Positions 5,865-6,314 of a stretch of DNA of 12,048 bases are shown here, piece after piece. The notes under the pieces were generated by a model. That model saw only the letters and a program-made list of their open reading frames with translations, did not search any database and was not told where the DNA came from. Source of the DNA: a virus (taxonomy: Duplodnaviria; Heunggongvirae; Uroviricota; Caudoviricetes). Where the stretch lies: the IMG/VR virus record IMGVR_UViG_2534682338_000009, positions 1-12,048 of that record; one strand, given 5' to 3'. The position numbers were made by a program, and so were the translations under genes. Positions within the stretch are counted from its first letter, which is position 1; every line of letters begins with the position of its first letter.

Positions 5865-5960
5865 GTGATTTCCTATTCACTTTTTATTCATTTTCCATTG
5901 ATTGGTATTTTCTATATGTTTCGGTACTTATTACTTTAGCTATCGATCTTGCGTGTTCTT

Positions 5961-6030
5961 ATGAAAAAATTTCATAGATATTTTTTATAATTCGCGGCGA
6001 AAACTCCACGATCACCCAGATTTTCGGGAG
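5961..6030 (-). promoter_or_regulatory. Candidate packaging-site (cos-proximal) or promoter region upstream of the small terminase
   Basis: On the minus strand, ~100-140 bp upstream of the small terminase ATG, the sequence GAGTTTTCGCCGCG...TATGAAATTTTTTCAT resembles the lambda segment GGGTTTTCGCTATTTATGAAAATTTTCC that follows the cohesive end (from memory). Also an imperfect palindrome ATGAAA-AAA-TTTCAT at 5961-5975 and a partly symmetric CCCAGATTTTCGGG at 6015-6028. Confidence 0.25.
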
Positions 6031-6314
6031 TACCTATTACTAATGAAAATAAATGATTTACTCCATTACAGTATTCACAGTAATAAACCATATTAATACT
6101 CTATAAGATGTATTTACCCCAGTACGCAATGACTTATCCATATGTCATATTAATCAAATAAATTACTGAAAAACTATTAGTCAACACACAAAACCATCAA
6201 CCATGTAACAATCAATATAAAAGAACAACATATGTCACAGTTTTGGAGATATTATTTTTATTCTCTCTCTGGTAATGGTATTAAATAATCCCTTTTTTCT
6301 TGTAGGTTTCCATA

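Follow-up and report, generated by a model that had tools for sequence, protein, structure and literature searches.

A probable cos site beside an OLD defence cassette in a temperate siphophage

Genes and sequence elements of the locus

The window, as we call the whole stretch of 12,048 nucleotides that was analysed (positions 1 to 12,048 of IMG/VR record IMGVR_UViG_2534682338_000009), contains an intergenic gap of 450 bp (5865-6314; 29% G+C) between the small terminase gene terS on the minus strand and a gene for an OLD-family protein on the plus strand (Table 1). Judging from their predicted products, the minus-strand genes form a lambda-type head and packaging module headed by terS and terL, and the terS, terL, portal and capsid reading frames are intact in the window. 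A full-length, collinear alignment was obtained between the large terminase (TerL) and lambda gpA (23% identity, E 6e-28), and pairwise comparison of TerS with lambda Nu1 gave 22% identity over 130 aa from the helix-turn-helix onwards (E 0.002); the TerS helix-turn-helix also showed a weak match to RppC. With its TTG start at 5422, the longest reading frame for TerL shares 128 nt with terS (5295-5422), gene callers placed the TerL start anywhere from 30 nt inside this overlap to 226 nt past the terS stop codon, and terL is split into fragments in several carriers.

An identical copy of the intergenic sequence is present in 10 other assemblies, and 132 blocks of an assembly collection index the exact TerS protein. 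Escherichia coli C2 carries such an element as a ~31-kb prophage inserted in yegD; its genes include those for a serine recombinase and a siphoviral tail. When sequenced phages were searched with the DNA of the region (in near and distant modes) and with TerS, no match was returned, and the nearest TerL among sequenced phages was only 39% identical (PQ671644.1, Escherichia phage DCP80, 1734-3716). This 141-kb record is classed as T4-like Straboviridae yet begins with a lambda-type gpA terminase, and it may be a chimeric assembly. No Rfam RNA family was found in 5700-6500, and a text search for the core sequence described below produced primer matches only.

Table 1. Features of the window around the gap between terS and the OLD gene; bp 1 is window position 6005.
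Feature	Position	Strand	Remarks
Protease-capsid protein	166-1602	minus	
Lambda-family portal	1502-2998	minus	
gpW-like joining protein	2998-3519	minus	
gpA-type large terminase (TerL)	3500-5422	minus	ATPase and endonuclease domains; PF05876 and PF20454
terS, small terminase	5295-5864	minus	189 aa; ATG 5864-5862; N-terminal Nu1-like helix-turn-helix; PHROG 57, E 1.9e-17
terS ribosome-binding site and two TGAATA copies	5869-5890	minus	AGGAAA at 5869-5874; TGAATA at 5874-5879 and 5885-5890
Lineage-specific rest of putative cosB and terS leader	5891-5945	minus	bp 61-115
R3-like putative TerS binding site	5946-5959	minus	bp 47-60; AGAACACGCAAGAT here, AAAACAAACAAAAC in most relatives
I2-like AT-rich spacer	5960-5988	minus	bp 18-46; includes palindrome 5960-5976
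cosN-like core	5989-6007	minus	GGAGTTTTCGCCGCGAATT, 19 bp, bp -2 to +17; conserved in relatives
Spacer between cosQ-like element and core	6008-6026	minus	holds most of CCCAGATTTTCGGG; pairwise identity 0.37, length held
cosQ-like element	6027-6035	minus	AGGTACTCC; AGGTWCTC at fixed distance before core
Constant 53-bp unit (cosQ-like element, spacer and core)	5987-6039		bounded by mosaic joints
OLD cassette upstream region	6040-6314	plus	limits from BLAST
OLD-family ATPase-TOPRIM nuclease	6315-8135	plus	606 aa; single-gene defence cassette; Pfam AAA_15 and OLD-like_TOPRIM

Conserved elements upstream of terS and their mosaic joints

The DNA upstream of terS was aligned among relatives from IMG/VR, metagenomes, Pseudocitrobacter and E. 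coli (loci are designated by L and a number), and 80 loci were added by scanning with an alignment built from diverse TerS sequences. Positions were numbered with the A of AGTTTT as bp 1, the family being lined up with the true ends of lambda and N15. The core proved to be the most strongly retained element, with a pairwise identity across relatives of 0.89, compared with 0.50-0.57 at the 4-fold sites of terS and 0.35-0.38 in the spacers. Over deep divergence the core is thus more conserved than synonymous sites, which argues for continuing selection. The 17-mer GAGTTTTCGCCGCGAAT within it is nearly invariant in relatives and occurs once in the window (0.01 expected); it holds GCGAAAAC (5997-6004), the sole meaningful motif among those flagged in a preliminary description of this DNA. 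That description had overlooked the core in its full length of 19 bp, and likewise the cosQ-like element and the R3-like block (5946-5959).

When the wider family is compared, all TerS classes have the left half of the core, AGNTTT(Y)CG, in common and differ in the right half, the sequence continuing as CCGCGAAT, ACGCACTTT, CAGCGAAT, GCACCGAAT or CAGTCCGG depending on the class. Natural lambda-like cosN sites display the same asymmetry (PMC4669245). By its register with lambda, the top-strand nick is predicted to fall between 6006 and 6005 (G^AGTTTT). The core contains an 11-bp palindrome (TTCGC-C-GCGAA, 5991-6001) which is centred 3.5 nt off the lambda-register centre and is missing in distant relatives, e.g. 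L051 (AGATTTCGACGCAC), making the cut positions and the overhang length uncertain. Among ~170 loci (IMG/VR, metagenomes and assemblies with the exact TerS) no contig started or ended at the core, the nearest contig start lying 8 nt before the cosQ-like element, so the cut positions given here are predictions. A reading frame of 39 aa that crosses the core (5972-6091, minus strand), and that gene callers predict at times, was discarded, as its N-terminal half lies in DNA that has no counterpart in relatives.

The second constant element, AGGTWCTC, is kept at a fixed spacing from the core even where the flanks are unrelated, and across the family it lies 27-31 nt before the core or bp 1. The composite pattern AGGTWCTC-N18-24-AGTTTYCG was detected in 63 of 169 loci, once per related locus and always pointing towards terS. 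The other motifs picked out in the preliminary description behaved differently from the core. The ATGAAAAAATTTCAT palindrome does lie at 5961-5975, but it had been called imperfect and is in fact a perfect 7+3+7 repeat (TATGAAAAAATTTCATA, 5960-5976); it is broken in the closest relative (L001), and its occurrence is at chance level: a count of perfect inverted repeats (arm length 6 or more, loop length 10 or less) yielded three, all at the locus 5960-5985, against 2.9 +/- 2.2 in shuffled sequences. The partly symmetric CCCAGATTTTCGGG was located at 6015-6028 and is conserved solely in near-identical copies. Conservation of the CT tract likewise does not extend beyond near-identical copies; the tract is present, though not as the 9-nt CTCTCTCTC at 6263-6271 but as the 8-nt CTCTCTCT at 6263-6270.

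Downstream of the core, the I2-like spacer includes a sub-block at bp 29-41 (5965-5977, RTGRRAWWTTTT) that is 0.71-0.72 identical across the family. It is followed by the R3-like block at bp 47-60, whose pairwise identity of 0.85-0.87 stands out from the 0.35-0.38 of the adjacent spacers. The sequence of this block follows the DNA-binding domain of TerS: its identity was 0.80 within TerS DNA-binding classes and 0.35 between classes, and its correlation with DNA-binding-domain identity (Spearman 0.52) exceeded that of the neighbouring DNA (0.14-0.24). Domains of the type ...QEIADRFGVE[HN]STVSRIW are paired with AAAACAAACAAAA, the window's variant ...YTEIAERFGVEISTASRIW with AGAACACGCAAGA, SELSRRYGYD.SVISREW with ACA[CT]AA[AC]ACA and NQLAKQYGYNESTVREWKAQGMP with GAGGCGAAACGTTA, while further classes are paired with C-rich versions. 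The classes are few and phylogenetically nested, so the covariation is support rather than proof; by position and covariation, bp 47-60 is a putative TerS binding (R) site.

Between this block and terS, the segment 5891-5945 was very variable (40 to 85 bp long) even among relatives with identical TerS DNA-binding domains. Lineage-specific dyads beyond bp 60, e.g. GAAAGGTTTTACCTTTC in L007, were considered as R sites and rejected, because they do not track the TerS DNA-binding class. The two TGAATA copies are 11 bp apart and overlap the terS ribosome-binding site, and Tandem Repeats Finder (TRF) reported an 11-bp period at 5874-5894. TG[AC]ATA arrays of 2-3 copies with 11-12 bp spacing were present just 5′ of terS in 9 of 69 unique relatives, spanning several TerS classes; this array may be an undescribed control or packaging element. 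Besides the window, L096, L097, L100, L128, L148, L152 and L166 are among the loci with such an array, and L008 and L011 have a second array ~200 bp beyond the core. In two different contigs, L041 and L070, a hexamer is repeated in tandem at least 9 times, (CCCTTA)n, at an identical location ~200 bp upstream of the core.

Homology breaks define the borders of the unit formed by the cosQ-like element, the spacer and the core. In relatives without OLD (L002, L003, L060), homology runs from the head genes up to 6037-6039 and then stops, whereas E. coli C2, despite a TerS that is only 39% identical, matches the window at 92% identity from 5987 across OLD. These breaks leave a constant unit of 53 bp, each side of which has been swapped independently. 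At least ~10 relatives (L105, L124, L137, L157-L160, L162, L163 and L057) have an additional gene (~200-230 aa, divergently oriented) between the unit and terS, which places the unit ~700 bp from terS; in about ten such loci the composite pattern still points towards terS.

Since the mosaic joints fall exactly at the borders of the unit, it could be argued that it is a recombination joint, i.e. a linker for module swapping, or the relic of a dead cos in a defective prophage, with no present role in packaging. The fragmented terL genes are in keeping with a relic, some copies sitting in prophages with broken terL, as is one metagenomic relative that has lost the core by deletion between 10-bp direct repeats. 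On the other hand, conservation of the core above synonymous sites implies continuing selection, the terS, terL, portal and capsid frames of the window are intact, and the recurrence of the identical intergenic sequence and of the exact TerS across assemblies is consistent with an element that is still spreading. A role as a joint is, moreover, compatible with a role as cos, and we regard the absence of any packaging role as improbable. At ~100 bp upstream of terS, the metagenomic relative in question, L067 (PPYF01375696.1), lacks the whole of the cosQ-like element and core seen in L006, the deletion lying between two direct-repeat copies of GTATATTAAA; it may be a packaging-dead prophage or an assembly artefact.

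The OLD cassette and transcription signals in the gap

The OLD protein was identified by PADLOC as 'Old' (E 1.4e-74) and is 23% identical to P2 Old. The inserted cassette extends from 6040 to about 8275-8455. The slot beside the constant unit is occupied by OLD in the window and by a PLD-like gene in L004, and it has no insert in L002, L003 and L060. In Pseudocitrobacter faecalis (L004/L012, 4833-5771, minus strand of the locus) the slot is occupied by a gene for a PLD-family protein of 312 aa and by a reading frame of 124 aa, which are both transcribed away from the unit, as is OLD here. In L054 an OLD homolog sits beside a tRNA-like sequence and the DNA in common begins only at 6215, which places OLD's own control region within 6215-6314.

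A strict sigma-70 scan of 5700-6500 found no site in the gap and a single match inside OLD (6384-6412), against 3.9 expected by chance. Two weak candidates for an OLD promoter were noted, one with a -35 element GTCACA (6234-6239) and a -10 element TTTATT (6257-6262), the other with an extended -10 element TGgTATTAA (6276-6284); their position-weight-matrix scores were low (best 5.6 or less). If used, the former promoter would give a transcript with the CT tract at its 5′ end. The sequence TCACAGTTT (6235-6243) is invariant or nearly so upstream of all aligned OLD homologs (OLD 84-93% identical), and it also occurs ~105-118 nt upstream of P2 old (L089), where ~0.15 such matches are expected by chance (a rough estimate for P2 alone). 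This recurrence may reflect a common control element or be fortuitous.

Beyond OLD, a perfect hairpin with an 8-bp stem (GCCAGTAC ta GTACTGGC, 8152-8172; fold z-score -3.4) lies 17 nt after the stop codon. It has no T-run and may be a bidirectional terminator separating OLD from the upstream late genes. The gap that follows OLD (21-24% G+C) contains a perfect tandem heptamer, TACTCAT, of 9.3 copies with 100% matches (8262-8326), and three assemblies with the prophage break off ~155-185 bp beyond the stop codon of OLD, at this repeat or close to it.

An ordinary divergent control region would account for some of these features: the gap is AT-rich and lies between divergent genes, there are weak promoter-like matches on both strands, and the TG[AC]ATA array over the terS ribosome-binding site could be an operator. 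The conserved block would then be the site of a regulator (a late activator or repressor) and the other motifs promoter elements of terS and OLD. The strict scan found no sigma-70 site in the gap, however. In addition, replacement of either neighbour, or insertion of a gene before terS, leaves the position and orientation of the unit unchanged, which would be unexpected of a promoter or operator, and the sequence at bp 47-60 varies in step with the TerS DNA-binding domain. This explanation is accordingly given little credence, about as little as a joint or relic. The preliminary description had placed both the terminase recognition elements and the OLD promoter in one divergent region; the gap does appear to hold recognition elements as well as the OLD upstream region, but as two modules joined at 6039/6040 rather than as a single control region.

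Comparison with characterized cos sites and a proposed mechanism

The elements of the window have the same order and direction relative to the small terminase gene as those of lambda, and the terminase is likewise composed of a Nu1-like and a gpA-type subunit. In lambda and N15, cosQ (GGGTCCT) lies 30 nt before the nick, and AGGTACT is found about 30 nt before the predicted nick here, the cosQ-like AGGTACTCC lying 28-30 nt upstream of the core. The heptamer agrees with lambda GGGTCCT at 5 of 7 positions, which within +/-1 nt has a chance probability of ~0.04 (a rough estimate), whereas L070 has an exact GGGTCCT (7/7), 29 nt before AGTTTT. The I2 segment of lambda is AT-rich and covers about bp 18-50 (PMC4856287). 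In register with lambda and N15, the AT-rich spacer here has RTGRAAWWTT at bp 31-40; the sequences at these positions are ATGAAATTTT in the window, GTGGAAAATT in L003, ATGAAAATTT in lambda and ATGAAAAATT in N15. R3 occupies bp 50-65 in lambda and bp 48-60 in N15 (PMC9026076), and N15 R3 (GAGGTTGTTGTTT) is T/G-rich and resembles the reverse complement of the family's AAAACAAACAAAA.

The similarity does not extend to the sequence as a whole. The predicted end in the window, AGTTTTCGCCGC, shares 4 of 12 bases with that of lambda, GGGCGGCGACCT. When the family profile was run on lambda and N15, their cos sites were not singled out, the in-register score in lambda ranking 9th of 798 locally; genome-wide (~98,000 positions), lambda cos was absent from the best six matches listed for each of four profiles. 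Sequence homology to lambda cos was dropped as an explanation, since the family profile did not single it out, and the likeness of layout was retained. Accordingly, the likeness to lambda is one of layout, and its three in-register landmarks were noticed after the fact. By the same comparison the site falls outside the 'lambda-like phages' sensu Feiss, which have 12-base 5′ ends with clear identity to GGGCGGCGACCT.

In its organization the site is closer to N15 than to lambda. Lambda has an IHF site (I1) and R3, R2 and R1, whereas here there is no IHF site and no clear triplet. An IHF-site prediction, as proposed in the preliminary description, gave one match to WATCAANNNNTTR with at most one mismatch, at 6048-6060 and outside cosB, against 1.9 expected by chance. 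N15 has a single critical R3, no IHF site and terS close by, the same layout as here (PMC9026076; PMC4669245). The spacing to terS had been likened to that of lambda cosB; the terS ATG is at bp 142 here, 142 bp from the core, between N15 (89) and lambda (191) (PMC9026076), and at bp 99-145 in the family. The layout is nearer to the simple cosB of N15. In contrast to the window's site, N15 keeps the cosQ of lambda and a near-lambda cosN, and no significant similarity was detected between N15 TerS and the TerS of the window.

Taken together, the genomic context, the selection on the core and the layout support the reading that 5946-6035 (minus strand, towards terS) is probably the cos of a ~30-kb temperate siphophage and that 6040-6314 is the upstream region of a separate, mobile OLD cassette. 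On these grounds the cos would be of the lambda/N15 kind, but not a member of the lambda cohesive-end sequence family. A pac-type recognition region with headful packaging and no defined cohesive ends, which would fit both the lack of a contig end at the core among ~170 loci and the occurrence in pac phages of small terminases with an N-terminal helix-turn-helix and of repeated sites near or within terS, is very improbable, as TerL is gpA-type with ATPase and gpA endonuclease domains, is collinear with lambda gpA and belongs to a family that makes 5′-extended cos ends, and as the site lies outside terS with the order and spacing of cosQ-, cosN-, I2- and R3-like elements.

Lambda and N15 suggest, by analogy, a mechanism for the probable cos, in which TerS would bind the R3-like block (5946-5959) through its helix-turn-helix and would thereby set the gpA-type TerL ~47 bp away, on the core (5989-6007), for staggered nicks. 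A nick near 6006/6005 would leave a 5′ cohesive end of ~11-12 nt, AGTTTTCGCCG(C), and the AT-rich I2-like spacer (5960-5988) would assist. Packaging would run in the direction of terS, and the cosQ-like AGGTACTCC would be required at the next cos to complete the cut. No IHF site would be involved, giving a simple cosB in the style of N15. The OLD cassette would represent an insertion at the extreme right end of the virion chromosome, with transcription directed away from cos, as for P2 old.

This resemblance to P2 concerns the arrangement. In P2, old adjoins cosR and is transcribed away from it, with 213 bp from the old ATG to the end of cosR, compared with 310 bp for OLD here. P2 is a myophage whereas the host element here is a siphophage with a lambda-type terminase, and P2 cos has 19-nt ends of unrelated sequence. 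Defence hotspots adjoining cos have been described in P2 and P4 (PMC9122126). The site is very probably a well-supported but ordinary cos with a defence cassette beside it, an arrangement of a known kind that would not surprise specialists.

It is also possible, though we consider it rather doubtful, that the 53-bp cosQ-cosN unit acts as a portable joint at which the adjoining defence cassettes (OLD, PLD-like) are swapped between unrelated phage backbones. The unit is the only sequence common to phages of different packaging specificities, which suggested this idea, and cutting by the terminase perhaps promotes recombination there. If true, it would extend the cos-adjacent defence hotspot of P2 and P4 to siphophages with lambda-type terminases. 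The locus would in any case be a further case, outside P2 and P4, of a defence gene lying directly beside cos. It also suggests that the lambda/N15 cos layout persists at 23% terminase identity despite a changed sequence. For the widespread and uncharacterized ~30-kb enterobacterial prophages of this type, the analysis provides a testable cos map, comprising a predicted end, a TerS site and a termination element, and it marks where the virion chromosome is expected to begin and end, together with the 100 bp that would make a plasmid packageable.
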